Shown: positions 13,578 to 40,858, counted from the stretch's first letter. The stretch: DNA of 64,000 bases from Bacteroidales bacterium (GCA_012838585.1 DUPB01000031.1:1017-65016), one strand, 5' to 3'. The notes: generated by a model from the letters alone, not told the origin. Numbers and translations: made by a program.

Positions 13578-16500
13578 TTCTCCTCTTTAGGCTTGCTATA
13601 CCTGAAATCGAAAAGGTTCCTGATCGATTGCCCCTCCTTGGTGACCACGAAACCGACACCCTGCGTGACGGGGGCACGGCTGGAAAACCGCTCGTTGGCA
13701 CGATTAAACGCTCTAAGCATAAACCAGTTGTTTATGTCGTACTCCAACTCGAACTCGCCCATGAACGCTTGCTGGCTAGCCAACATGCTTTTATCCCCGT
13801 AACTCAGGTTGGTCGATAGGCGCAGGCGGTTATTCAACAGGCGGGTAGAGACATCCACCCCCATCCTGGCGTTATCAAGGGAGCCATCCAGCGTCTGCAA
13901 ATTCGTGCTGACCGTCCAGTTATCCCTCAAGGCGCTGGCGAACAGGGCATCCAAGCCCCTGGAGAGGTAATTCGCGGCGAAGTTGGTGAACATCGACGAG
14001 CCGAAGGCAACATCCGGCGACCCTTCGGCAGGGATAAAACTCCCGGTGGTGGCCAAGTAGGCGAACTGCAATATCTTGGTCTCCTCGGTGTTGATGAAGC
14101 TTTTGACCCGCTGCTGAATATCACTGGAGCTCTCGGGAAGCTCGATGTCGTACTTGAGATCCATCGCCTCCAGGTTGCCGTTAATCCGCAGCAACGCGTT
14201 CACCGGGACACGCGTATTTTTCAATTCCTGTGCGAAAGTGGGGCTAAGTGCCGACAAATCGGTTCGCACTGGCAGGAAGGCTGTAATATCGAAACGGGTA
14301 TTAAGGGGGTGACCAGCCATAGTCAGCCGGCTACCTTCACGTATAGAAAAGTCGATAGAGCGCAAATTCTGCAGGTTATAGTGAAATTTACCCTCATTGA
14401 TCACGTAATCACCGTAAAGCCTTACCTGGGGCGTTGCTTTGGAGTTGTAATTGATGCTCAACTCCCCTTCGCCGTTTATCTCCAAGGCGTTGCCTGAGGT
14501 CGGATCCAAAATGACCCCGGCAGTGAGCTGGGGGGTCAGGTCGACCGTGGCCCGCATCACAACAGGCAACCCCGAAGCGGTAGAGGCGTTAATCTGACTG
14601 GAGAGCTCACGACCTCTACGGAGGAAACTCAATGAGTCCTCCGATGGGGTATTGATGTAGACAATCCCGGTATACTCGATGGCCTTGGCAGTTTGCGGCA
14701 ACACCACCGTAACGTCTGACTGCCTCCTGGTGTACAGCCTACCATCACCAAAGATACCCGAGGAGGAGCCCGCGATGCTGACATTACCCGACAGGCAGAG
14801 GTTGCCGTACACCATCAGGTCGGTACGGTTCTTATTGTTCAACAGCATGAAGTCATCAAGGCGAACGTTGGCCGTGAAGGCCATCCCCCCGAAGTTGACG
14901 TGCGAAAGTTGTAAATCCAAGGTGGCCGCTCGGTTATTCTGATCGCGAATTACCAGGTTGGTCAGTCCCACGTTGTCCTTGCCCACCCTGATAGTGTCCG
15001 ACAGGTAATAGGTAACGTTGGTATAGGCGACCTTCAGTTCACCATCCTCGATTCCCAACCACCCCTGGGTGAGCGGCTCTGAAAGCTTGCCGCCTATATG
15101 GAGACGCGAATTCAACCGTCCCTTCAACTCACTGAAAATCGTGGTGGCCAACGGCTGAATGGTACGAAGCTCAAAGTTATCAATCGAAAGGGCAACGTCC
15201 AAAGGTAAGGGACTGGCTTCGCCCGTGGGAACGTATCCCTTGATCTCGAGGCTCTTCTCTTGGCCATTCTCCAGGTAGGCGTTCAAGTTAAGCCCAGAGC
15301 GGAGCTGGTCCCAGTCCCCTTCGATTCGTAACGTACCAATCGTATCGTTGTTCAGGGCGATATGCTCTACGCGCAGCGCTTCGGTATGGATCATGGGGGT
15401 CTCCAGGGCCTGCTGGACGAAAACCTCACCCTTAAGGGAACCGGAGATGTTAGTCACGTCAAAAGCAGCCAAAATAGAGCCCATCTCCGTGTTATTGAAG
15501 TAGAGCCGGATATTGTCCTCCTCTCTTTTCGAGGCCACCCCTTCCAGCCCAAACAGCAACATCTCGCCTTGTCGAACACCGAAGTTCCTAACGGTTATCG
15601 AATCTTTTCGGTATTCAATAGCGGCCTTGTTAATCGTAACATCCCGCCCGTTAAACTGCGCGGAGGTAGGATGCACCCGGAGATCAATGCCCAGCTGATC
15701 GTTCCAATCCCTTAAGAAGTCCATAGCGATGAGCAGGTTCCCGTTCGACTTCGTGTTTACCTGATTCAAATCGTACTCAAAGTGGTTCACCAGCGAATCA
15801 CCCGCGGCAGTGCTACGAAGACGGGCATTGAGGTACCCCTTATCCTGCACCAGGTAGCTGCTCATCGCGAGCTTGATGCCTTTCTGTCTGCTCTCAAGTT
15901 CCAGCCAGGTCTCCCTTACGTCGCTGTTGCCAAAGATTATCTGGGGGATATGTGCATCTAGACGCAACGGTCGGCTATTGTTCAGATTAATGACCTCCGC
16001 AATGGTCGCCGGCTGCTTTAGCCATTCGCTAATCGTCCTGCCGGTCCGGTTTCTCAGATCAATACTCCCGGAAATAGTTGCCGGCTCCACATTGTAGAAA
16101 GGAAGGGAGAAGACGTGAGAGATATCTTCTGTGTTTTTTATGAGGAAATTAAAGGTGAAATTATTTTTGGCCGGGGAATCCTTATCCGTTGACAATGGTT
16201 GGTTCACTGTATGCAGGGGAACAGTTACTGCACCCTCCACTATCTCCTCCTCCTCTTTTATCACGGAGGGCAGGTAAAGCTGCAGCTCCTTGGCCAACTC
16301 CCTGCCAATCGTGGAAAAGTAGTAGTCTCCCATGATCTCCCCGTCGAGGATAGAGGATGCGATCTCTATCTTTTTACCCTTCTTCGGGTCGACTGATGCT
16401 TGTAGGTAAATGGGTCCCGGGTTGTAGTAAAAGCTACTATCCATGAGCGATGTCTGGTCCATCACGAGGGAGCCGGTCAAATCGTCAAACGTCGTACCGA

Positions 16501-29873: not shown

Positions 29874-30938
29874 ATGACACAAAAGCGTCCTCTTTATATA
29901 CTTATCCTTTTCTCTTTCCTCCTTCTCCTGCCCCACCCCTTCTTCGCGCAGTTACAGAAAGAGATACAGCACGGTATTCTTGTCGATTCCGGGCACGTTT
30001 CCCGATTTTCCGCACAACTACAGAAAGAGACACGGCACGGCGTTCTCATTGACTCCGGGCACGTTTCCCACTTTTCCGCCCAATTACAGAAAGAGACACT
30101 TCGATACGCGGTAACGGATGGCGAGGAGCTTTGGATGGATATCTACAGGGGTGACTCCATCACGACGGAACCTCGCCCCTGCCTGCTCTTCGTTTTCGGG
30201 GGCGGCTTTAAAGAGGGAGAAAGAGACGCGAAAGGGTACCAGCCCTATTTTGATTACTTCGCCCGCCGTGGCTTCGCGGTGGTTTCCATCGACTACCGCT
30301 TGGGGATGAAGGGAGAGAAGGCCCCAGGCATGTTTAACTTTAAGCCGTTGCTGAAAGCTATAGAGATGGCGGTAGTCGATCTCTACACGGCCACCGGGTA
30401 CCTGGTTGACCATGCCGAAGAGCTGGGTATTGACCCCGGGCGGATCATCATCAGCGGGTCAAGTGCCGGCGCTATCACGGTTCTACAAGCCGACTACTGG
30501 AAGAGGAACCGTCATCCCAACGCCGAATCGTTGCCCGCTGACTTCCGGTACGCCGGGGTGATCTCATTCGCTGGCGCGATCTTCAGCACCAACGGCACAC
30601 CCTCCTACCTCCAGCCCCCCGCCCCAACCCTCTTCTTCCACGGGAGTGGCGACCGGCTGGTTCCATACAACAAAATCCGCCTTTTCCACCTGGGCATGTT
30701 TGGCTCCAAAGCTATCGCTGAAAAGTTCAAGCTGGAGCGTTACCCCTACCAGTTTTACAGCATGGAGAAGATTGGTCACGAGGTCGCGGATTATCCCATG
30801 CGGGAGTTCCTCCCGGAAATCGAACAATTTATTCGTGATTGGGTGTTCGACCGTTCACGCCGCATGGTAGATATTCGGTACGAGGATATGTCGAGAAAGG
30901 CAGATCTTACCGCTACCCCGGCAAACTACTACAAATAA
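29874..30938 (+). CDS. Secreted alpha/beta hydrolase (esterase-like) with N-terminal 22-aa repeats
   Basis: Oxyanion FGGGF, nucleophile GSSAG, FFHGSGDRLVP, C-terminal His (IGHEV); signal peptide. Confidence 0.85.
   Translation: MTQKRPLYILILFSFLLLLPHPFFAQLQKEIQHGILVDSGHVSRFSAQLQKETRHGVLIDSGHVSHFSAQLQKETLRYAVTDGEELWMDIYRGDSITTEPRPCLLFVFGGGFKEGERDAKGYQPYFDYFARRGFAVVSIDYRLGMKGEKAPGMFNFKPLLKAIEMAVVDLYTATGYLVDHAEELGIDPGRIIISGSSAGAITVLQADYWKRNRHPNAESLPADFRYAGVISFAGAIFSTNGTPSYLQPPAPTLFFHGSGDRLVPYNKIRLFHLGMFGSKAIAEKFKLERYPYQFYSMEKIGHEVADYPMREFLPEIEQFIRDWVFDRSRRMVDIRYEDMSRKADLTATPANYYK
29946..30098 (+). repeat. 66-bp in-frame tandem repeat, about 2.3 copies
   Basis: Units start at 29946, 30012 and 30078 and encode AQLQKE[IQ/TR]HG[IV]L[VI]DSGHVS[RH]FS. 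Confidence 0.9.
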
Positions 30939-33760
30939 TGAGTGCCCAACAACTCCACAACCACCTCACGAAACTCTTCCCCAAAGAGCAAGTTTTTACC
31001 GACGAGCTTTATCGCCTTGTGAAAGGAACCGATGCCGGGCTCTATCAACTTATCCCCAAAGCAGTGGTGAAAGTCAACAAGGAAGAAGAGGTAATCCGAC
31101 TACTGCAATTTTGCAGCAAAGAAAATGTTCCTGTAACATTTAAGGCGGCGGGAACAAGCCTGAGCGGACAAACTATTTCCGATTCCGTTTTAATGGAGAT
31201 TGGACAAGGTTTTGAGTTTTCAGCCATTACCGATAACGGGCATACCGCCACGTTTGGCGTGGGACTAACGGGAACGGCGGCGAACCGCATGTTACAACGC
31301 TATCGCCGAAAACTGGGACCGAGACCGGCATCCATCAATTCGGCGAAAATCGGAGGAATTATTGCCAACAACGCAAGCGGGTCAAGCTACGGCATCCGCC
31401 ACAACAGTTACAACACGGTAAAAGCGATGCGGATTATCTTTGCCGATGGCGCACTGCTCGATACCGCAGATGCCGAGAGTTGCCGAAAATTTATCGAGTC
31501 ACACCCCGCCCTAATCGCTCAAATTGAGCAACTCCGTAAGGAGGCTTTCGAAAACAAAGCGATAAGAGAGCGTATTCATCGCAAGTATCAACTCAAAAAC
31601 ACCTGTGGCTACGGCGTTAACTCGCTGATTGACTTTGACGATCCCATAGATATTATCCGACATCTGATGATTGGCTCTGAAGGCACGCTCGGGTTCGTGT
31701 CTCAAGTCACCTTTGAAACGGTGCACGATGCGCCATTGAAAGCCACGGCGATGCTCTACTTCCATAACCTGCGCGACGTGTGCGAAACCATCCTTCCGTT
31801 GCGTTCCTGCTCGGTAAGCGCGGCGGAGCTAATGGATCGAAACGCTTTGCGAGCGGTAGAAAATCAGGAGGGAATGCCTGCCGAACTGAAATCGCTTCCC
31901 GAAGGAGCCGCAGCGTTGCTTATCGACACTTCTGCCGATGACGAGGATACGCTATTAGCCCATATGCAGGAAATTGAAGAAAAACTCGCGCGTATTCAGA
32001 CGCTTTACCCCATAAAATTCACCACCGACCAACGTTTATACGACCTCTATTGGAACGTGCGTAACGGGCTCTTTACATCGGCGGCAGCCTCACGTCCGCC
32101 ACACACGGCAAGCATCATTGAAGATATCGCTTTTAACGGGGATATTTTAGGTGATGCGCTGACCGATGTGCGGGAGCTGTTGGTGCGAACAGGTTATTCC
32201 GATGCGGTCATGTGGGGGCATTTGCTCGACGGGAATGTTCATTTTACCGTTTTCCCCGATATAAACAGAGCGGAGGGCGTGAACAAATACGCCCGTTTTA
32301 TGCGTGAACTCGCCGAGTTGGTCACGGTGAAACACGATGGCAGCCTGAAAGCCGAGCACGGAACGGGACGAAACATGGCTCCCTTCGTGAAAAAGGAATG
32401 GGGAGCGGACATTTACGGGTTGATGAAACGGATAAAATCGGCTTTCGACCCGTTACAGATCTTAAATCCCGGGGTAATCATCAACGACGACAAAGAGGTT
32501 TTTATCAAGAACCTGAAACGCGTTCCCGATGCCAATCCGCTGATCGATAAATGCATTGAATGCGGATTTTGCGAACCCACTTGTACTTCGAAAAACCTCA
32601 CGCTCACTCCCCGACAGCGTATTGTGGCGTATCGTCGGTTGGCACAATTATCGGATAACGAATCCAATAGAAAAACGCGCGAGAAATGGGCGAAAGAGAT
32701 GGCGTATGGGTTTAACGAAACCTGCGCTACCGATGGGCTTTGCGCTATTGCTTGCCCGGTGAATATCGACACGGGGGCGTTGGTAAAGGAGCTGCGTTGG
32801 AAGGAGAACGGCAGATGGGCAAACAGCATCGCAAGCAGTATCGCCAATAACATGAAAGAGGTAACTTCGATTATTCGGGGCGTAATGAAAACACCGCACG
32901 CCATCGCGAAAACCATAGGATACCACAACATGGAAAGTATAACGAAAGGGTTGTATAAAGTAGGCAACGGCCTGTTACCGCTTTGGACTCGTTACACACC
33001 GTCAAGCAGCAAAAAGATCGTCCGCGATATTTTCCCGGCCGAGAGTGCCGATTCGCCCATGGCAGTCTATTTCCCATCGTGTATCACCCGCTCCATGGGC
33101 GGTGCATCCTATGGATACAGGGAAACGGACGACGTTCCCGCCAAAATGCTCTCGTTGTTGCGAAAAGCAAATTACACGGTCATCATTCCCGAGGAGAAAG
33201 ACAAGCTCTGCTGCGGAATGGCTTTTAGCAGCAAAGGTTTTCGCAAGCAAGCACGACAAAAAGAGACGGAACTAAACGAAGCGTTGCTGAAAGCTAGTCG
33301 CAATGGCGAACTGCCCATTCTGTGCGATATGAGTCCTTGCTTGTTGCATATGCGCGAAACTCTCGACCCGCGACTGAAATTGTACGACCAAGTGGAGTTT
33401 ATCCACGACTTCCTGTTAGACCGACTTCAAATCGAGAAGCAACCCATATCTATCGCCATACACACCACGTGCAGCTCCAGCAAAATGCATTTAGAGGAAA
33501 AGCTGCACAAAATCGCGTCGCTTTGCGCCGAAACGGTGATCGTTCCAGAGAACATCTCCTGTTGCGGCTGGGCGGGCGACAGGGGCTTTTTCTATCCCGA
33601 ACTAAACAACTCGGCATTAGCACAGTTGAAACAGGGCGTTGGAAGCGCCACCGAAGGCTACTCAAACAGCCGCACCTGCGAAATCGGGTTGTCCATCAAC
33701 AGCGGTATGGCGTATAAGTCGTTAATCTACTTGGTGGATAAAGCGGCAAAAAGCATCTGA
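30938..33760 (+). CDS. FAD-binding and 4Fe-4S/CCG-domain oxidoreductase (Fe-S D-lactate dehydrogenase-like)
   Basis: FAD_binding_4 (FKAAGTSLSGQ, IGGIIANNASG, GSEGTLG, EHGTGR), ferredoxin motifs CIECGFCEPTC and CATDGLCAIAC, two CCG domains. True start 30938 (TAATG overlap), not 30839. Confidence 0.8.
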   Translation: MSAQQLHNHLTKLFPKEQVFTDELYRLVKGTDAGLYQLIPKAVVKVNKEEEVIRLLQFCSKENVPVTFKAAGTSLSGQTISDSVLMEIGQGFEFSAITDNGHTATFGVGLTGTAANRMLQRYRRKLGPRPASINSAKIGGIIANNASGSSYGIRHNSYNTVKAMRIIFADGALLDTADAESCRKFIESHPALIAQIEQLRKEAFENKAIRERIHRKYQLKNTCGYGVNSLIDFDDPIDIIRHLMIGSEGTLGFVSQVTFETVHDAPLKATAMLYFHNLRDVCETILPLRSCSVSAAELMDRNALRAVENQEGMPAELKSLPEGAAALLIDTSADDEDTLLAHMQEIEEKLARIQTLYPIKFTTDQRLYDLYWNVRNGLFTSAAASRPPHTASIIEDIAFNGDILGDALTDVRELLVRTGYSDAVMWGHLLDGNVHFTVFPDINRAEGVNKYARFMRELAELVTVKHDGSLKAEHGTGRNMAPFVKKEWGADIYGLMKRIKSAFDPLQILNPGVIINDDKEVFIKNLKRVPDANPLIDKCIECGFCEPTCTSKNLTLTPRQRIVAYRRLAQLSDNESNRKTREKWAKEMAYGFNETCATDGLCAIACPVNIDTGALVKELRWKENGRWANSIASSIANNMKEVTSIIRGVMKTPHAIAKTIGYHNMESITKGLYKVGNGLLPLWTRYTPSSSKKIVRDIFPAESADSPMAVYFPSCITRSMGGASYGYRETDDVPAKMLSLLRKANYTVIIPEEKDKLCCGMAFSSKGFRKQARQKETELNEALLKASRNGELPILCDMSPCLLHMRETLDPRLKLYDQVEFIHDFLLDRLQIEKQPISIAIHTTCSSSKMHLEEKLHKIASLCAETVIVPENISCCGWAGDRGFFYPELNNSALAQLKQGVGSATEGYSNSRTCEIGLSINSGMAYKSLIYLVDKAAKSI

Positions 33761-33816
33761 ACCACACGAATCTAAAAATAATCGCTATCTTTATACCGTT
33801 AAATCCGTTTAATTAT

Positions 33817-36186
33817 ATGATGATGAATCAACGCATACAGGGGTTAAGGGAAGAGAGCGTTACAACACCCGCGACTTTGTCCATCGAGCGTGCTTTGATA
33901 ACCACCCGGTTTTACAAAGAGAACAATGGGAAATATTCCATCCCGATGATGCGCGCCCTCAACTTCATGGAGATTTGCGAGAAAAAAGCCATTTACATTG
34001 GCAAAGATGAGCTGATAGTAGGCGAGCGGGGCGAAAAACCGAAAGCTGTCTCCACCTTCCCCGAACTGACCTGCCATACGGTTGAAGACCTGCGTGTACT
34101 CAACACACGTAGCCAACAGCGTTACATCATCAGCGAAGAAGATATCGAAACCTATCGGACCGAGGTTATCCCCTATTGGCAAGGGCGTACCCAGCGCGAA
34201 CGCATCTTCAATTTTGTACCCGAAGAGTGGAGTGCCGCTTATGAAGCAGGGTTATTCACGGAGTTTATGGAGCAACGCGCTCCCGGGCACACCTGCCTGG
34301 ACGGGAAGATCTATGAAAAGGGCATGCTCAATTTCAAAAGAGAGATCAATGAAGAGATCGCCCAATTGGATTACTTTAACGACCCCGAAGCTACCGACAA
34401 GGAGGAGCAACTGAAAGCCATGGCCGTTTCTTGCGACGCCATTATCAGACTGGCCGAACGATACGCCGAAAAGGCCGAAGATATGGCAACTGAAGAGAAG
34501 GAGCCGAAACGAATTGACGAACTGTTGCAGATAGCAGAAGTTTGCCGCAGGGTACCGGCACATAAGCCGCGCGATTTTTGGGAAGCGATTCAAATGTACT
34601 GGTTCGTACACCTGGGAGTCATTATCGAATTGAACGGCTGGGATGCCTTTAACCCCGGGCACTTCGACCAGCATCTTGCACCCTTTTACAAAAACGATTT
34701 GGCTGCCGGAACACTTACCCGCGATGACGCGAAAGAGCTTTTAAGTTGTTTCTGGATAAAAGTGAACAATCAGCCTGCCCCGCCAAAGGTGGGTGTTACC
34801 GCTAACGAGAGCGGCACCTATAACGATTTCACCAACATCAATATAGGGGGTGTGAAACCCGACGGCTCGGATGGCGTGAACGAGGTGTCATATATCATGC
34901 TGGAGGTTATCGAAGAGCTGCATATCCTGCAGCCGGGAACCTCGGTACATATCTCATCCCGCACCCCGGACAAGTTTTTACACGCCGCCATCAAAGTGAT
35001 TCGTCAAGGGTATGGTTATCCCTCGCTGTTTAACCCCGACATCTATATCCAGGAGATGTTGCGCTCAGGAAAATCGCTCCGTGATGCCCGCGAAGGGGGA
35101 TGCAGCGGATGCATCGAAGTGGGTGCTTTTGGTAAAGAGGCTTACCTGCTTACCGGCTACCTCAACGTGCCTAAAATCCTTGAAATCACGCTGTTCAACG
35201 GAGTTAACCCGGTTACGGGAAAGAGGGTGGGTATCGAAACAGGCGACCCGCGCGATTTCACCTCGTTTGAAGCGCTTTACCATGCTTTCCACGCGCAGTT
35301 GAAGTATATTATCGACCTGAAGATCAGGGTTAACAACTATATCGACCGGATGTTCGCCAAATATGCCCCGGCCACCTTTTTATCGGTAATCATCGATGAC
35401 TGTATAAAAAAGGGACGGGACTATTATAATGGCGGACCGCGATACAACACCACCTATATCCAATGTACCGGGCTGGGGACCATTACCGACTCGCTGTCGT
35501 CAATCAAAAAGCACGTTTACGAAGACAAGTCCATCGACATGGAGCGATTGCTACACGCCCTTTCCGTCAACTTTGAGGGCGAAGAGGTGTTGCGTCAACG
35601 AATCTTGAACAACACCCCCTTCTTTGGCAACGATGACGATTACGCCGATGATATTGCCGTGAGGGTTTACGATGACCTGTTCGATTTGATCGATGGTCGC
35701 CCCAATGGAAAGGAGGGCGGTAAGTATCATATGAACATGCTCTCCACCACCTGTCACAACTATTTTGGCACCATCATGGGCGCAACGCCCAACGGGCGCC
35801 TGGCGGGAAAACCCATCTCGGATGGCACATCGCCATCTCACGGTAGTGACAGGCACGGCCCAACCGCGGTAATACGTTCGCTCGCTAAATTGGATCAGAT
35901 AAAATCGGGAGGGACATTGCTGAATATGCGATTTCTACCCAGTCTGCTTAGACGCGATGAAGATGTGGCCAAGTTGGGCAAACTCATACGCAGCTATTTC
36001 TCACATGGGGGACACCATGTGCAGTTTAACATCGTGGATACGGCAACCCTGCTTGCCGCGCGGGAAAATCCCGAGCAGTACCGGGATCTACTGGTCAGGG
36101 TGGCGGGGTATAGCGACTACTTCAACGATATAGGCGAAAGCTTAAAACAGGAAATTATTGATCGCACCGAGAACAGATCGTTTTAA
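33817..36186 (+). CDS. hypD: Glycyl radical enzyme, trans-4-hydroxy-L-proline dehydratase
   Basis: 789 aa. Gly loop RVAGYS, Cys loop GCIE. HypD specificity residues recognisable: PGHT, WDAF, ESGTYNDF, LTGY, TTCH. No adjacent CC pair as in PFL. Confidence 0.88.
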   Translation: MMMNQRIQGLREESVTTPATLSIERALITTRFYKENNGKYSIPMMRALNFMEICEKKAIYIGKDELIVGERGEKPKAVSTFPELTCHTVEDLRVLNTRSQQRYIISEEDIETYRTEVIPYWQGRTQRERIFNFVPEEWSAAYEAGLFTEFMEQRAPGHTCLDGKIYEKGMLNFKREINEEIAQLDYFNDPEATDKEEQLKAMAVSCDAIIRLAERYAEKAEDMATEEKEPKRIDELLQIAEVCRRVPAHKPRDFWEAIQMYWFVHLGVIIELNGWDAFNPGHFDQHLAPFYKNDLAAGTLTRDDAKELLSCFWIKVNNQPAPPKVGVTANESGTYNDFTNINIGGVKPDGSDGVNEVSYIMLEVIEELHILQPGTSVHISSRTPDKFLHAAIKVIRQGYGYPSLFNPDIYIQEMLRSGKSLRDAREGGCSGCIEVGAFGKEAYLLTGYLNVPKILEITLFNGVNPVTGKRVGIETGDPRDFTSFEALYHAFHAQLKYIIDLKIRVNNYIDRMFAKYAPATFLSVIIDDCIKKGRDYYNGGPRYNTTYIQCTGLGTITDSLSSIKKHVYEDKSIDMERLLHALSVNFEGEEVLRQRILNNTPFFGNDDDYADDIAVRVYDDLFDLIDGRPNGKEGGKYHMNMLSTTCHNYFGTIMGATPNGRLAGKPISDGTSPSHGSDRHGPTAVIRSLAKLDQIKSGGTLLNMRFLPSLLRRDEDVAKLGKLIRSYFSHGGHHVQFNIVDTATLLAARENPEQYRDLLVRVAGYSDYFNDIGESLKQEIIDRTENRSF

Positions 36187-36223
36187 CTTTAATTCATTGC
36201 GCTACTTCTACATTCTATAGAGC

Positions 36224-37126
36224 ATGCCTTTTCTGTTCGACATAAAGCGTTACTCCATCAACGACGGGCCCGGCATACGCGTAACCATCTTTTTCAAAGG
36301 ATGCCCGTTATCCTGCAGGTGGTGCCACAATCCCGAGAGTCGGTCGTTCAAAACCGAAAAGATGTACAACAAAAGCAGGTGCATCGGTTGCTCATCATGC
36401 GTGGAGATATGTCCCGAAAAAGCCCTTACCCTAACTAGCAACGGTATCCAAACCGATTTCACGCGTTGCACCGTTTGTGGCCAATGCGCCCTGGTGTGTC
36501 CCACCAACGCGATGGAGATGAGCGGACGAAGATATTCGGAAGAGGAGGTGATGTCTGTCATTCTGAAAGAGACCGCCATTATGGATTCATCGGGTGGCGG
36601 GGTAACCTTTTCCGGGGGTGAGCCGTTGGCTTTTCCCCAAGTGCTGAAAAGTCTACTTGTAAGATGTGGTGAAGAGGGTATTCACAGGGCCGTGGACACA
36701 TCAGGACACGCTGATCTATCAGTAATGGAAGATATTTTGCCTCATACCGACCTGTTTTTATACGATTTGAAACATATGGATGCAGACGAACATCGAAAAT
36801 GGGTTGGAGTGGACAACGTAACCATTCTTGAAAACCTTCAATTTATTGCCGACAGTAACAAAGCTTATCATATCCGAATCCCGCTAATAGAGGGTGTAAA
36901 CACTACGGATGAAAACATCAGCGCTACGATTGATTTTTTGACATCGCTAAAAAGAGCGCCGGATATGGTGGGACTTCTGCCCTATCACGATATCGCGGCC
37001 CATAAATATGAAAAGCTCGGAAAGATGTATGATGACGAAGGCTTATCGGCACCCGACGATAAGAGGCAGCTGGAAATTCTGAACACGTTTATCGAAAACG
37101 GATTTAATGCAGTAATCGGTGGTTAG
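36224..37126 (+). CDS. Glycyl-radical enzyme activase (radical SAM with ferredoxin insert)
   Basis: [14 protein letters not shown] radical-SAM motif, two extra ferredoxin motifs ([11 protein letters not shown]; [11 protein letters not shown]), [10 protein letters not shown]. Confidence 0.93.
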
Positions 37127-37203
37127 GAATCTATCTAATACAGGTAACTATTCCGCCAAAGTTACTTATATTCGATGTTGTAACTAAAATAAATTTATCC
37201 TTT

Positions 37204-39450
37204 ATGAAACATAGACACTTTTTTGTTATAGCCCTCTTGCTTTTTCCCTTTATGCTATCGGCCCAAGGGATTGACAGCCTGTACCGTTTGGCTGATAACT
37301 ACACCGAATTGTTTACTTCAAAATATTATTGGGGTGCCCAAAACGTACGGGCAGGCTATAGAGCACATCTATTTGCCTATGAAACCCAAACACCGGATGG
37401 ACCTGAGTATTTTATTATTGATCCCGTGGCGGCAACCCAGGAAAAAGCATTCGATCGGGAACGTATCTCCATAGCACTTTCTAAGTTTCTTAATCGGGAA
37501 GTGGATCCCAACAATCTTCCTGTACGCCGATTGCGCCCGGAAAAAGATTCGCTCTTTTTTACCATTGATGACGTGGATCACTTCATGACGCTGTCAGATT
37601 ACACAATAACTAAATGTCAGGAACAAAACAATTATACCAGACCTTACTGGGGCCTTATTGACAAAGAAAACGCAAAAGTAAATGTATCCTCTCCCGACGG
37701 CAAAAAAGAGGCCTATATTTCTGAAGGGAACCTGTGGGTAAGAGATATTGAGACAGGAGAGAGAAAGAAACTGAGCAACGATGGCTCACCCTATGCTTAC
37801 TACTCTTCAAAAATCTATTGGTCGCCCGATTCGCGTAAAATTGTATGCAGCAAATACAGTCCCGTAGAATACAGGAAGTTGTTGTTAATCTCTTCATCGC
37901 CCACCACGCAATTGCAACCTCTCACGGAAGAGTATGAATATCCAAAACCCGGTGATGCTTTACCCGTGAGACGTCCTGCCCTTTTTATGGTGGAAACGGG
38001 CGAAATAGTCCATTTCGATATTCCCAACATTGAACAACAATACTATTTAGGCAACATCAAGTGGAATAAAAACAGCGATTTCTTCACTTTCGATTTTAAC
38101 AGGCGCGGACATCAGCAATACGTGATTTATGCCGGAAATCTGTCGGGAGAGCTACGTGCTGTTGTTAATGAAGAGTGCGATACCTTTATCTACTACTACT
38201 CACTCTATCAGTATTGGTTTGAAAACTCAGACGAAATGCTTTGGATTTCCGAACGTGACGGGTGGCGACACCTCTATCTATACGATGTCCTTTCGGGAAA
38301 AGTTAAAAAGCAGCTGACCAAAGGTGAATGGATCGTTAAGGATGTGGTGAGGGTGGATGAAAAAAAGAGAGAAATCCTATTTATAGGGTGCGGAATGGAT
38401 AAAAATGAGGATCCTTATCTCGAAAAATATTTTTTGCTCAATATAGATAATGGCAACATAGTGGCCCTTACTCCCGAGAATGCCCACCATAGCGTAACTT
38501 TCTCACACGATTACGCCTACATGTTCGATTCTTACTCACGGGTAGATTTGCCACCAACTTTGGTTGTTCGCTCCGTTGAACAGGGCGGAAAAGTTATCTA
38601 TAAACCCTCTTTGCAACCCGATATTTCTGCTGTTAAAGCAGCAGGATGGCAACAACCCGAAGTTTTCTCCGCGAAAGGACGCGATGGAAAGACCGATATC
38701 TGGGGTATGATTGTTCGTCCTTCGAATTTCGACCCGTCGAAAAAATATCCCGTTATTGAATATATCTACGCCGGACCACATGACTCACACGTGCCCAAAC
38801 ATTTCGCTATCGAGCAACGATATACATCTGCTCTTGCCGAGTTGGGATTTATACTTGTAATGATGGACGGAATGGGAACGGCAAACCGCTCAAAAGCCTT
38901 CCACGATGTCTGCTGGCACAATATTAAAGATGCCGGTTTCCCTGACCGAATCGCGTGGATCAAAGCCGCTGCAGCGAAATATCCCGAAATGAATATCGAC
39001 AACATGGGTATTTACGGCATGTCAGCAGGTGGACAGAGCACTATGGGTGCACTTCTATTCCATCCAGAATTTTACAAAGTGGGCGTTTCGGCGTGTGCAT
39101 GTCATGACAACCGCATGGATAAAATCTGGTGGAACGAACAGTGGATGGGGTACCCTATCGGCGAACATTACGCCGCCTCTTCCAATATGGAAAATGCTCA
39201 CCTTCTGGAAGGAAAACTGCTACTTATTATGAGTGATTTGGATAACAACGTTGACCCGTCGAGCACAATGCAAGTGGTAAAAGCACTCATCAAACATGAT
39301 AAGGAGTTTGATTTGGTGATGCTTCCGGGAGAAAGGCATACCATGGGTGGAAAATATGGTGAGAGGAAGCGTCGCGACTTCTTCGTCAAGCACATTCTCA
39401 ATATCGAACCGCCAGAATGGAACAGCAAGAACAGCAATTCTAACAAGTAA
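37204..39450 (+). CDS. Secreted S9B dipeptidyl-peptidase IV-like prolyl oligopeptidase
   Basis: Signal peptide, DPPIV_N-like propeller, catalytic GMSAGG, DNNVD and GERH. Confidence 0.88.
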   Translation: MKHRHFFVIALLLFPFMLSAQGIDSLYRLADNYTELFTSKYYWGAQNVRAGYRAHLFAYETQTPDGPEYFIIDPVAATQEKAFDRERISIALSKFLNREVDPNNLPVRRLRPEKDSLFFTIDDVDHFMTLSDYTITKCQEQNNYTRPYWGLIDKENAKVNVSSPDGKKEAYISEGNLWVRDIETGERKKLSNDGSPYAYYSSKIYWSPDSRKIVCSKYSPVEYRKLLLISSSPTTQLQPLTEEYEYPKPGDALPVRRPALFMVETGEIVHFDIPNIEQQYYLGNIKWNKNSDFFTFDFNRRGHQQYVIYAGNLSGELRAVVNEECDTFIYYYSLYQYWFENSDEMLWISERDGWRHLYLYDVLSGKVKKQLTKGEWIVKDVVRVDEKKREILFIGCGMDKNEDPYLEKYFLLNIDNGNIVALTPENAHHSVTFSHDYAYMFDSYSRVDLPPTLVVRSVEQGGKVIYKPSLQPDISAVKAAGWQQPEVFSAKGRDGKTDIWGMIVRPSNFDPSKKYPVIEYIYAGPHDSHVPKHFAIEQRYTSALAELGFILVMMDGMGTANRSKAFHDVCWHNIKDAGFPDRIAWIKAAAAKYPEMNIDNMGIYGMSAGGQSTMGALLFHPEFYKVGVSACACHDNRMDKIWWNEQWMGYPIGEHYAASSNMENAHLLEGKLLLIMSDLDNNVDPSSTMQVVKALIKHDKEFDLVMLPGERHTMGGKYGERKRRDFFVKHILNIEPPEWNSKNSNSNK

Positions 39451-39469
39451 TTAATTAAGATAAAAGCTT

Positions 39470-40858
39470 ATGTTTTCAAAAGAGACGTACATTTCCAGGA
39501 GAGAACAATTGAAAAAAAAGTTTCAATCAGGCGTACTGCTTTTTTTAGGCAACGACGAGTGTGGTATCAACTATGAGGACAACACCTACTATTACCGGCA
39601 GGATAGCAGCTTCCTCTACTATTTCGGCATAAGTAGGCCCAACCTCGCGGCACTGATCGATATTGACGAAAACAGGGAGTATATTTTTGGCGATGAGGCC
39701 ACCATCGACCTGATTGTTTGGACCGGCTCCCAACCCTCCATACAGGAGTTAGCCGAACGAGTAGGCGTTAAAAATACCAACAGCTTATCACGCTTAACAG
39801 AGAAACTCAGGAAAACCGATAAGGAAAAAATCCACTATCTACCACCCTATCGCGCGGAGCATATTCTAAAACTCAATCACCTGTTGGGGTATCCGAAAGA
39901 GGAGATTTCTGCAAAAACAAGTAAAAAGCTGATTGAAGCAGTAGCCAATCAACGCAATATCAAATCGGAAGAGGAGATCAATGAAATTGAAACAGCGGTT
40001 AGCGTGTCGTCAGAGATGCATAAGAGGGCCATGAATTTCGCCCGTCCCGGCATGACGGAAGCCCAAGTAACCGCGGTGGTTCATGAAACAGCACTTGCGG
40101 CGGGCGGTAATATAGCTTTCCCGATTATCGCGACCATCAACGGGCAGTTCCTTCATAATCACTACCATGGCAACACCATTCATGAAGGTCAACTATTCTT
40201 ACTGGATGCTGGCTATGAAACCCCATTGGGATATGCCGGAGATTTGAGCAGCACATTTCCAGTGTCCAGAAAATTCACTGAACGTCAAAAAGAGATTTAC
40301 CAAATAACGTTGGAAGCTCATAACATCGCTATTAAAATGTCCATGCCCAATGTCAACTTTAAAAATGTGCATATGCACGTTTGCGAATTTATTTTTGACA
40401 GACTAAAAGAGCTCGGTTTAACGAAAGGCAACACTCAGGACGCGGTTGAAAACGGAGCGCACGCGTTATTCTTCCCTTGCGGAACAGGTCATCTTTTGGG
40501 ATTGGATGTACACGATATGGAAAGTTTGGGAGAGGAGATTGTAGGATATAACAATGTACCTAAAAGCACACAATTCGGCTTAAAATCTCTTCGCTTGGGA
40601 AGGGAGCTTGAACCCGGTTTCGTACTTACTATCGAGCCCGGAATCTATTTTATACCCGAGCTGATTGATTATTGGCGGGAGAAAAAAATCAATACCGATT
40701 TCATCAATTTCGATGAAGTTGATACATATCGGGACTTTAGCGGCATCCGCAACGAGGAAAATATCTTAATTACGGAAACAGGAAACCGCGTACTCGGCAA
40801 ACCGTTGGCTAAAAGCATCGAAGATGTGGAGGCTGAGCGAAGGGTCGCTTTTATGTGA
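39470..40858 (+). CDS. pepP: Xaa-Pro aminopeptidase/prolidase (M24B)
   Basis: AMP_N-like N-terminus (YRQDSSFLYYFG). Metal ligands LLDAG, GDLSSTF, GHLLGLDVHD, TIEPG, RNEE. No signal peptide. Confidence 0.85.
   Translation: MFSKETYISRREQLKKKFQSGVLLFLGNDECGINYEDNTYYYRQDSSFLYYFGISRPNLAALIDIDENREYIFGDEATIDLIVWTGSQPSIQELAERVGVKNTNSLSRLTEKLRKTDKEKIHYLPPYRAEHILKLNHLLGYPKEEISAKTSKKLIEAVANQRNIKSEEEINEIETAVSVSSEMHKRAMNFARPGMTEAQVTAVVHETALAAGGNIAFPIIATINGQFLHNHYHGNTIHEGQLFLLDAGYETPLGYAGDLSSTFPVSRKFTERQKEIYQITLEAHNIAIKMSMPNVNFKNVHMHVCEFIFDRLKELGLTKGNTQDAVENGAHALFFPCGTGHLLGLDVHDMESLGEEIVGYNNVPKSTQFGLKSLRLGRELEPGFVLTIEPGIYFIPELIDYWREKKINTDFINFDEVDTYRDFSGIRNEENILITETGNRVLGKPLAKSIEDVEAERRVAFM

Follow-up and report, generated by a model that had tools for sequence, protein, structure and literature searches.

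Two peptidase genes beside hypD in a Bacteroidales genome: a candidate cassette for the catabolism of hydroxyproline peptides

HypD is among the most abundant glycyl radical enzymes of gut and sediment anaerobes. Little is understood of its function beyond Clostridia (PMC8264950), and the clostridial partner of hypD is proC (PMC6219649), which agrees with the statement in an earlier note that clostridial hypD is linked to a gene for Δ1-pyrroline-5-carboxylate (P5C) reductase. That note concerned a 64,000-nucleotide stretch of DNA from a Bacteroidales bacterium (GCA_012838585.1 DUPB01000031.1:1017-65016; the whole stretch is referred to here as the window), in which hypD and the gene for its activating enzyme (activase) are followed by genes for two peptidases, one of family S9B and one of family M24B. 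Why do two peptidase genes stand beside hypD? The proposal had been that the peptidases free Hyp (trans-4-hydroxy-L-proline) from peptides and so feed HypD. The core of that proposal holds: across Bacteroidales, both peptidase subfamilies co-occur with hypD, in many cases lie in physical linkage with it, and move with it as a cassette. Three further parts need revision. The S9B enzyme is not a true dipeptidyl peptidase IV (DPP-IV), no unknown route for P5C is required, and collagen as the source of Hyp is an assumption. We put the probability that the four genes make up a cassette for the catabolism of Hyp peptides at about 0.65.

The host genome measures 3.2 Mb, is 99.7% complete, and holds the window as contig C207. 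The closest named relatives of the host are Proteiniphilum species; Bacteroidales metagenome-assembled genomes (MAGs) are also close. A listing of open reading frames (ORFs) in the window gave four intact, co-directional ORFs that fill positions 33817-40858 of the + strand, as follows.

33817..36186, + strand: hypD, encoding the HypD dehydratase (789 aa; assigned from the NF043068 score, the match to 6vxc, and active-site residues)
36224..37126, + strand: gene for the HypD activating enzyme, a radical SAM protein (300 aa; TIGR02494, NF043069)
37204..39450, + strand: gene for an exported serine peptidase with the S9B fold, from a divergent subfamily (748 aa; DPPIV_N and Peptidase_S9)
39470..40858, + strand: gene for a cytoplasmic prolidase-type M24B metallopeptidase ("Cys-type"), a candidate Xaa-Hyp dipeptidase (462 aa; AMP_N and Peptidase_M24)

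The gene order, the common direction, and the intergenic gaps of 37 bp (hypD-activase), 77 bp (activase-S9B), and 19 bp (S9B-M24B) are exactly those described in the earlier note. Its family calls, including a signal peptide on the S9B enzyme and a cytoplasmic location for the M24B enzyme, were confirmed by domain and profile matches and by a signal-peptide check.

The window HypD scored 1195.8 bits on the curated equivalog model NF043068 (cut-off, 1100; 1195.5 bits in a whole-genome search) and matched HypD of Clostridioides difficile (PDB 6vxc) with an E value of 4.5e-299. We mapped its residues onto those found to be essential or substrate binding by Backman et al. (PMC7077986); the HypD-specific residues, in C. 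difficile numbering, are His160, Asp278, Asp339, Ser334, Phe340, Tyr450, and Thr645 (PMC7077986). All 15 of the 15 catalytic and Hyp-binding residues are kept, as listed here in window numbering.

Glycyl radical loop (RVAGYS): G764, kept
Cys-x-Glu loop: C432-I-E434, kept
Acid-base residues: H158, D276, and D337, kept
Carboxylate binding: S332, Y448, and T644, kept
Proline-aromatic contact: F338, kept
Other active-site residues: F150, R154, W275, and K324, kept

The ORF that starts 37 bp 3′ of hypD scored 343.7 on TIGR02494 (cut-off, 174). Its best specific model is that of the HypD activase, NF043069, on which it scored 366.9, under the cut-off of 425. Its sequence contains the radical SAM motif CX3CX2C (at C27) as well as two Cys clusters of the ferredoxin type. 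An activase gene accompanies hypD in 86 of 95 related loci and in 79 of 80 evenly sampled Bacteroidales loci (both sets are defined below). Because of its position and this near-universal pairing, and despite the score below the NF043069 cut-off, there is little doubt that the predicted product is the HypD activase. Given the curated model and the retention of every catalytic and substrate-binding residue, HypD and its activase are predicted to convert free trans-4-hydroxy-L-proline to P5C. The HypD/HypD-AE/ProC cluster of C. difficile (Levin et al. 2017; PMC7077986) has the same dehydratase and an adjacent radical SAM activase; however, that cluster has proC with hypD, whereas in the window two peptidase genes follow the activase instead.

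Two sets of hypD loci were surveyed for synteny. The related loci (n = 95) comprise the 80 best HypD matches in contigs from one genome per species, plus relatives, with ORFs called by a simple longest-ORF rule. The even sample covers 401 Bacteroidales species, 140 of which carry hypD (a base rate of 35%); 80 of the 140 hypD loci (L149-L228) were taken with flanks of ~8.8 kb at either end. Among the related loci, the window-type M24B was the commonest neighbour family once hypD and the activase are set aside (23 of 95); the window-type S9B was found in 8 of 95. Linkage of M24B to hypD was seen in Bacteroidota, Gemmatimonadales, and Krumholzibacteriia. M24B lies directly upstream of hypD in most Proteiniphilum genomes and after the activase in one Gemmatimonadales MAG and one Krumholzibacteriia MAG, and a locus in Perlabentimonas has the same order as the window. 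Such a survey had been suggested in the earlier note, and it shows that the linkage of peptidase genes to hypD recurs across phyla and gene orders. The neighbours counted in the 80 evenly sampled Bacteroidales hypD loci were as follows.

S37 peptidase: 16 of 80, the commonest neighbour
EamA transporter: 8 of 80
Window-type M24B: 6 of 80
C69 dipeptidase: 6 of 80
M64 peptidase: 5 of 80
Window-type S9B: 4 of 80
Long aminopeptidase P: 4 of 80
Proline-racemase family: 4 of 80
OCD/mu-crystallin family: 2 of 80

At least one of six peptidase families was present in 28 of these loci, and in 23 it lay within four genes of hypD on the same strand. The S37 enzyme is an exported, PS-10/S28-like serine peptidase of ~437 aa, usually encoded just downstream of hypD and absent from the host genome of the window.

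Gene content was compared at two levels. In the genus of the host (37 genomes, 12 with hypD and 25 without), an M24B orthologue was present in 11 of 12 hypD-positive and 2 of 25 hypD-negative genomes (odds ratio, 126; Fisher p, 1e-6), and an S9B orthologue in 10 of 12 and 2 of 25, respectively (odds ratio, 57; Fisher p, 1e-5). Both hypD-negative genomes with M24B have the gene at a contig edge, and no other M24B match of the window type was found, down to an E value of 1e-20, in the remaining 23. Across the order, 37 of the 46 species positive for M24B (E value ≤ 1e-160) also carry hypD (odds ratio, 10; p, 2e-11), the E value serving here as a proxy for clade membership and the odds ratio being approximate. 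For the full-length S9B type, 25 of 31 positive species carry hypD (odds ratio, 9.2; p, 7e-8). None of these Fisher tests, at genus or order level, corrects for shared ancestry, and their p-values therefore make the genomes look more independent than they are. Nevertheless, the co-occurrence signal is spread over many families.

In a maximum-likelihood tree made by a quick search, with generic comparison sequences from Bacteroidales only, 21 hypD-linked M24B proteins and one unlinked copy from a hypD-positive genome formed one clade (SH-aLRT support, 98), separate from 19 generic Bacteroidales homologues. One genome (G053) holds one M24B of the hypD-linked clade and one generic M24B; hence, the clade represents a paralogue rather than the local housekeeping enzyme. 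Together, the co-occurrence, the recurrent linkage, and the dedicated clade support the conclusion that the association of the peptidase genes with hypD exceeds chance.

The four-gene cassette also appears to have moved. It aligns to a genome of another family (G177; L254, C27:263-7276) as a single 7045-bp block with 82.3% nucleotide identity. The block runs from hypD to the end of the M24B gene; the flanks are unrelated, and none of the genes flanking the cassette in the window was found in the 16 kb around it. The cassette proteins are 82-90% identical to those of G177 and only 62-84% identical to those of the window's own genus, in which M24B is found on the opposite side of hypD. In the last three cassette genes, the GC content is 0.44-0.47, versus 0.50-0.53 for hypD and the flanks. 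These observations fit lateral movement of the cassette as a whole, and the four genes would thus behave as a unit moving between lineages. A 70-aa remnant of S9B (G014:C11:23670-23879) was seen in a Proteiniphilum genome that has hypD and lacks both peptidases.

It could be argued that the adjacency in the window is incidental, the peptidase genes being transcribed separately and serving unrelated functions. Consistent with this, the S9B gene is preceded by a gap of 77 bp, the peptidase genes have a GC content (0.44) different from the 0.51 of hypD, and the order differs from that in the rest of the genus, where M24B is upstream of hypD. We disfavour this explanation and consider it very improbable, since the association recurs in several phyla with different gene orders, co-occurrence is strong at the genus and order levels, and the cassette is conserved as one block between unrelated flanks.

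Do the two peptidases themselves look like enzymes that would release Hyp? The M24B protein matched PF05195 (AMP_N) and PF00557 (Peptidase_M24) and lacks a signal peptide. Its best match in the PDB was human prolidase (5m4g; E value, 3.9e-46), with Escherichia coli aminopeptidase P (PepP) almost tied. It scored under the cut-offs of the curated bacterial PepP/PepQ models (186.6 versus 465 for NF008131; 165.1 versus 339 for NF010133). The metal ligands D246, D258, H341, E389, and E429 are intact and are invariant in the hypD-linked clade. A three-way alignment showed that the window M24B and human prolidase have two insertions in common that are absent from E. coli PepP. R375, which lies on one of these two prolidase-type insertions and has no counterpart in PepP, is equivalent to human Arg398, the residue that closes the site on the dipeptide carboxylate. 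Because the insertions, R375, and all five metal ligands are kept, the enzyme is predicted to be of the human-prolidase type in its architecture. The earlier description of it as an Xaa-Pro peptidase is corrected accordingly, to an enzyme of the human-prolidase type.

The pocket is a different matter. In PepP, the S1′ pocket that holds the proline ring consists of His350, Tyr388, and Arg406 (PMC5723419). The window M24B keeps the Tyr and Arg (Y393 and R427), and at the His350 position it has Cys337 (codon TGC at 40478), where generic proteins, human prolidase, and PepP all have His. Asn428, which adjoins R427, replaces Ile. Further clade-specific pairs are Ser-Ser at 260-261 and Lys-Ser at 372-373. 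Thus, the S1′ pocket expected of a prolidase-type enzyme is not conserved throughout, and the replacement of His by Cys, being clade-wide, is read from the alignments as a change rather than a defect. Cys occupies this position in 25 of 27 hypD-linked copies, 12 of 18 unlinked copies from hypD-positive genomes, and 3 of 21 copies from hypD-negative genomes. Compared with human prolidase (PEPD), which is 28% identical, the window enzyme has Cys in place of His366, has Asn instead of Ile beside the S1′ Arg, and differs at the two further clade-specific pairs. From these alignments we infer that the S1′ pocket has been rebuilt for a ring with an extra hydroxyl.

The hypD-negative genomes with a Cys-type M24B (G180:C128, G298:C20, and G400:C84) are species of one genus and also carry a shorter S9B homologue. 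The S9B match in each of these genomes shows two in-frame TAG codons; a boundary artefact, decay, or some other cause may account for them.

The S9B protein matched PF00930 (the DPPIV_N propeller) and PF00326 (Peptidase_S9), with no fitting NCBIfam model, and public databases give its cluster generic names only. Its N-terminus, MKHRHFFVIALLLFPFMLSAQG, is a Sec-type signal without a lipobox Cys. The catalytic triad is S607/D680/H712. The best relative in the PDB was the prolyl tripeptidyl peptidase (PTP) of Porphyromonas gingivalis, with an E value of only 2e-48. With PTP-A (2d5l, 2z3w) and with bacterial and human DPP-IV, the S9B protein shares the two-domain fold of a beta-propeller plus an alpha/beta hydrolase, the Ser-Asp-His triad, export, and the oxyanion Tyr in YAGPH.

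In PTP, Glu205 and Glu636 hold the N-terminus of the tripeptide. We aligned the window S9B and its orthologues with P. gingivalis PTP and with the host's own ordinary DPP-IV paralogue, encoded on contig C85. The propeller segment with the Glu-Glu motif is deleted from S9B (DGSPYAYYSS-KIYWSPD, versus DGEAGKVMNGVTDWVYEEEFGVTRLMEFSPD in the C85 paralogue), whereas the motif is intact in the paralogue (DWVYEEEFG). The corresponding PTP residues are also missing; the Glu205 segment is deleted, and Glu636 is replaced by Lys. The S1 residues at Tyr631/Trp659/Tyr662/Tyr666 are Ala608/Asn/Asp/Trp, which suggests a pocket that is smaller and more polar than that of DPP-IV. The Glu-Glu motif anchors the substrate N-terminus and is needed for DPP-IV activity, according to Abbott (1999) as cited in PMC5807507. 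On this comparison, S9B is DPP-IV-like in fold only and is not a true DPP-IV. Because the Glu-Glu segment is deleted and the PTP Glu residues are missing, release of X-Pro dipeptides, the activity assigned to this enzyme in the earlier note, cannot be assumed. Its exact cut (di-, tri-, or endo-peptidyl) is not readable from the sequence, because the N-terminal anchor is missing and the S1 pocket is altered.

In the DPP-IV of Stenotrophomonas maltophilia, the residue after the catalytic Ser is reportedly linked to acceptance of Hyp. This enzyme (PDB 2ecf) is reported to accept 4-hydroxyproline at P1 (Nakajima et al. 2008, as cited in PMC5807507), and the residue after the catalytic Ser forms the bottom of S1 (PMC5807507). 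In both the S. maltophilia enzyme and the window S9B, that residue is not the bulky Tyr of mammalian enzymes (it is Ala608 in S9B). Unlike S9B, however, the S. maltophilia protein has retained the Glu-Glu motif and acts as a true dipeptidyl peptidase.

A rival explanation of these enzymes is that both are general proline-peptide peptidases without a preference for Hyp, which lie near hypD through the clustering and co-regulation of genes for proline-type nitrogen and carbon salvage, with Hyp taken up mainly in free form. Both families are classical Xaa-Pro enzymes, the M24B protein keeps a full metal site and a prolidase architecture, and human prolidase takes both Xaa-Pro and Xaa-Hyp. This explanation would also account for the tight linkage in only 5-8% of evenly sampled hypD loci and for the genus that has the Cys-type enzyme without hypD. 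We nevertheless consider it unlikely. The window-type M24B is absent from 23 of 25 hypD-negative genomes of the genus and so has no housekeeping function in that group; the host genome encodes, at C120, a separate long aminopeptidase P of family M24B; the clade-specific changes sit in the S1′ pocket, where the imino-acid ring is held; and the ordinary DPP-IV paralogue that the host encodes on C85 has its Glu-Glu motif intact.

Under the cassette reading, the exported S9B peptidase would act in the periplasm and shorten Pro/Hyp-rich oligopeptides, and the resulting short peptides would be imported by a transporter encoded outside the cassette. In the cytoplasm, the prolidase-type M24B peptidase would split Xaa-Hyp dipeptides and perhaps also Xaa-Pro dipeptides, with the His-to-Cys and Ile-to-Asn replacements in the remodelled S1′ pocket giving room and a polar contact for the 4-hydroxyl. 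Free Hyp would then pass to HypD and be converted to P5C, which would yield glutamate by way of P5C dehydrogenase or proline by way of a ProC-like reductase, both encoded elsewhere in the genome. A stronger form of this reading, to which we give slightly less than even odds, is that the Cys-type M24B would be a dedicated "hydroxyprolidase" taking C-terminal 4-hydroxyproline and the Glu-Glu-less S9B a post-hydroxyproline oligopeptidase. Together with HypD, they would make up a cassette that moves laterally and provides the missing front end for the anaerobic catabolism of Hyp in Bacteroidota and several other phyla.

Several observations weigh against the cassette reading. Tight adjacency is the minority arrangement, with M24B in 6 and S9B in 4 of the 80 evenly sampled loci within 8.8 kb of hypD, and many hypD-positive genomes encode the peptidases away from hypD. 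One genus (G180, G298, and G400) has the Cys-type M24B although it lacks hypD. The E-value proxy admits a few generic His-type M24B copies, and the Fisher tests at both levels leave shared ancestry out of account, as described above. The cassette contains no transporter gene among its four genes, and the S9B gene could have its own promoter within the 77-bp gap. A sigma-70 promoter scan, which is poorly suited to Bacteroidetes, found fewer promoter-like sites than in shuffled sequences. In a close MAG (L050), a 28-aa M24B stub (15726-15809) follows S9B; the four-gene order is thus ancestral in that group, and M24B has been lost there. Finally, the preference of M24B for Hyp is a prediction from sequence.

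What becomes of the P5C? As the earlier note had stated, there is no proC in the window; nor was proC found beside hypD in any of the 95 related loci, with the host's own ProC as the query, so that a divergent ProC could be missed. A search of the genome for proC and putA functions, also proposed in the earlier note, was more productive. A P5C dehydrogenase is encoded at C160:2896-4557 (766.5 bits on TIGR01236; cut-off, 613.6). Contig C238 carries proA and a ProC-like gene that scores 160 bits, under the cut-off of 196.75, and a proline dehydrogenase (Pro_dh) fragment lies at a contig edge on C172. The earlier note had P5C handled elsewhere or by an unknown route; the first alternative stands, with P5C dehydrogenase and a ProC-like protein both encoded, and the second is unneeded. 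It had also supposed that Hyp is fermented. Because the genome encodes P5C dehydrogenase, a ProC-like reductase, and proline dehydrogenase, oxidation to glutamate is at least as likely, the dehydrogenase being the one that scores over its cut-off. In C. difficile, P5C is reduced for Stickland fermentation, whereas here P5C is probably oxidised to glutamate by the P5C dehydrogenase encoded elsewhere. Through oxidation to glutamate, Hyp would serve as a source of carbon and nitrogen; through reduction to proline, it would supply proline or act as a modest electron sink.

Where would the peptides come from? Collagen or gelatin, named in the earlier note, remains an assumption, and the window itself holds no pointer to collagen. 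In one Bacteroidales locus (L153; G309:C2:1046217-1066205), a window-type S9B gene lies between two genes for GH127 beta-L-arabinofuranosidases, directly upstream of the activase gene and hypD. GH127 enzymes remove arabinose from Hyp-linked arabinosides, and Hyp residues of extensin carry such arabinosides. Because its S9B gene is flanked by GH127 genes, this locus points to plant hydroxyproline-rich glycoproteins. A second rival explanation is therefore that the module is real and that its natural substrate is the backbone of plant hydroxyproline-rich glycoproteins (extensins or arabinogalactan-proteins) rather than collagen or gelatin. The host genome has several GH127-like genes, and plant glycoproteins have been proposed as a source of Hyp for Bacteroidetes (PMC6219649).

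Other loci point towards collagen. The fullest locus found (L156; G142, C1:519868-539856) has co-directional genes for the activase, HypD, S9B, M24B, an OCD-family protein, a proline-racemase-family protein, S37, and C69. A second long, co-directional hypD locus (L174; G341:C1) has OCD, proline-racemase, S37, and C69 genes plus S9B and/or M24B. The proline-racemase-family and OCD-family pair, which is also present in L244, is the known pair for trans-3-hydroxyproline, a component of collagen. L156 and L174 are apparently joint loci for 4-hydroxyproline and 3-hydroxyproline peptides, and no glycosidase gene lies in or beside the window cassette. Since collagen and plant sources are not exclusive and both may be used, we regard an exclusively plant-derived substrate as possible and somewhat doubtful.

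A literature search found no paper linking HypD to peptidases. The enzyme families are known; what is new is a pair of uncharacterised subfamilies whose tie to HypD shows in synteny, gene content, phylogeny, and the residues of the pocket. The locus and its relatives give concrete candidates for the anaerobic release of Hyp from collagen- or plant-wall-derived peptides, and Cys337 and Asn428 in the S1′ pocket of M24B offer a hypothesis at the level of residues. Because Pro-Hyp and related dipeptides resist host peptidases, a microbial Xaa-Hyp dipeptidase, if confirmed, would also matter for what happens to collagen peptides in the gut.

The boundaries of the cassette were considered from both sides. 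Downstream, a ccsBA gene ends 118 bp beyond the M24B ORF; given its convergent orientation and its membership of a neighbouring system, it was rejected as a part of the module. A scan for terminators, poorly suited to Bacteroidetes, found none within or after the cassette. Upstream, a co-directional gene of 973 codons (30839-33760, + strand) ends 56 bp before hypD. Its product is a YdiJ/GlcD-like, FAD-linked oxidase fused to Fe-S and CCG domains. This gene, too, was rejected as a part of the module, since it is not beside hypD in the closest relatives, and it is probably unrelated to the cassette. Between it and hypD lies the following feature.

33761..33816, + strand: 56-bp spacer 5′ of hypD, holding TATCTTTA at 33786-33793, a near-match to the Bacteroidetes -7 box

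We take TAnnTTTG to be the consensus of this promoter box; the near-match gives weak evidence only for a hypD promoter at this site. A different setting was seen in most of the genus, as in the Proteiniphilum loci L033, L037, L039, L042, and L055, where the gene order is transketolase, RpiB, an S41-family peptidase lipoprotein, M24B, HypD, and the activase. Just downstream of these Proteiniphilum loci, in convergent orientation, lies a gene for a hybrid two-component regulator of 1340 aa whose output domain is of the AraC type; it is a possible regulator and is absent near the window cassette.

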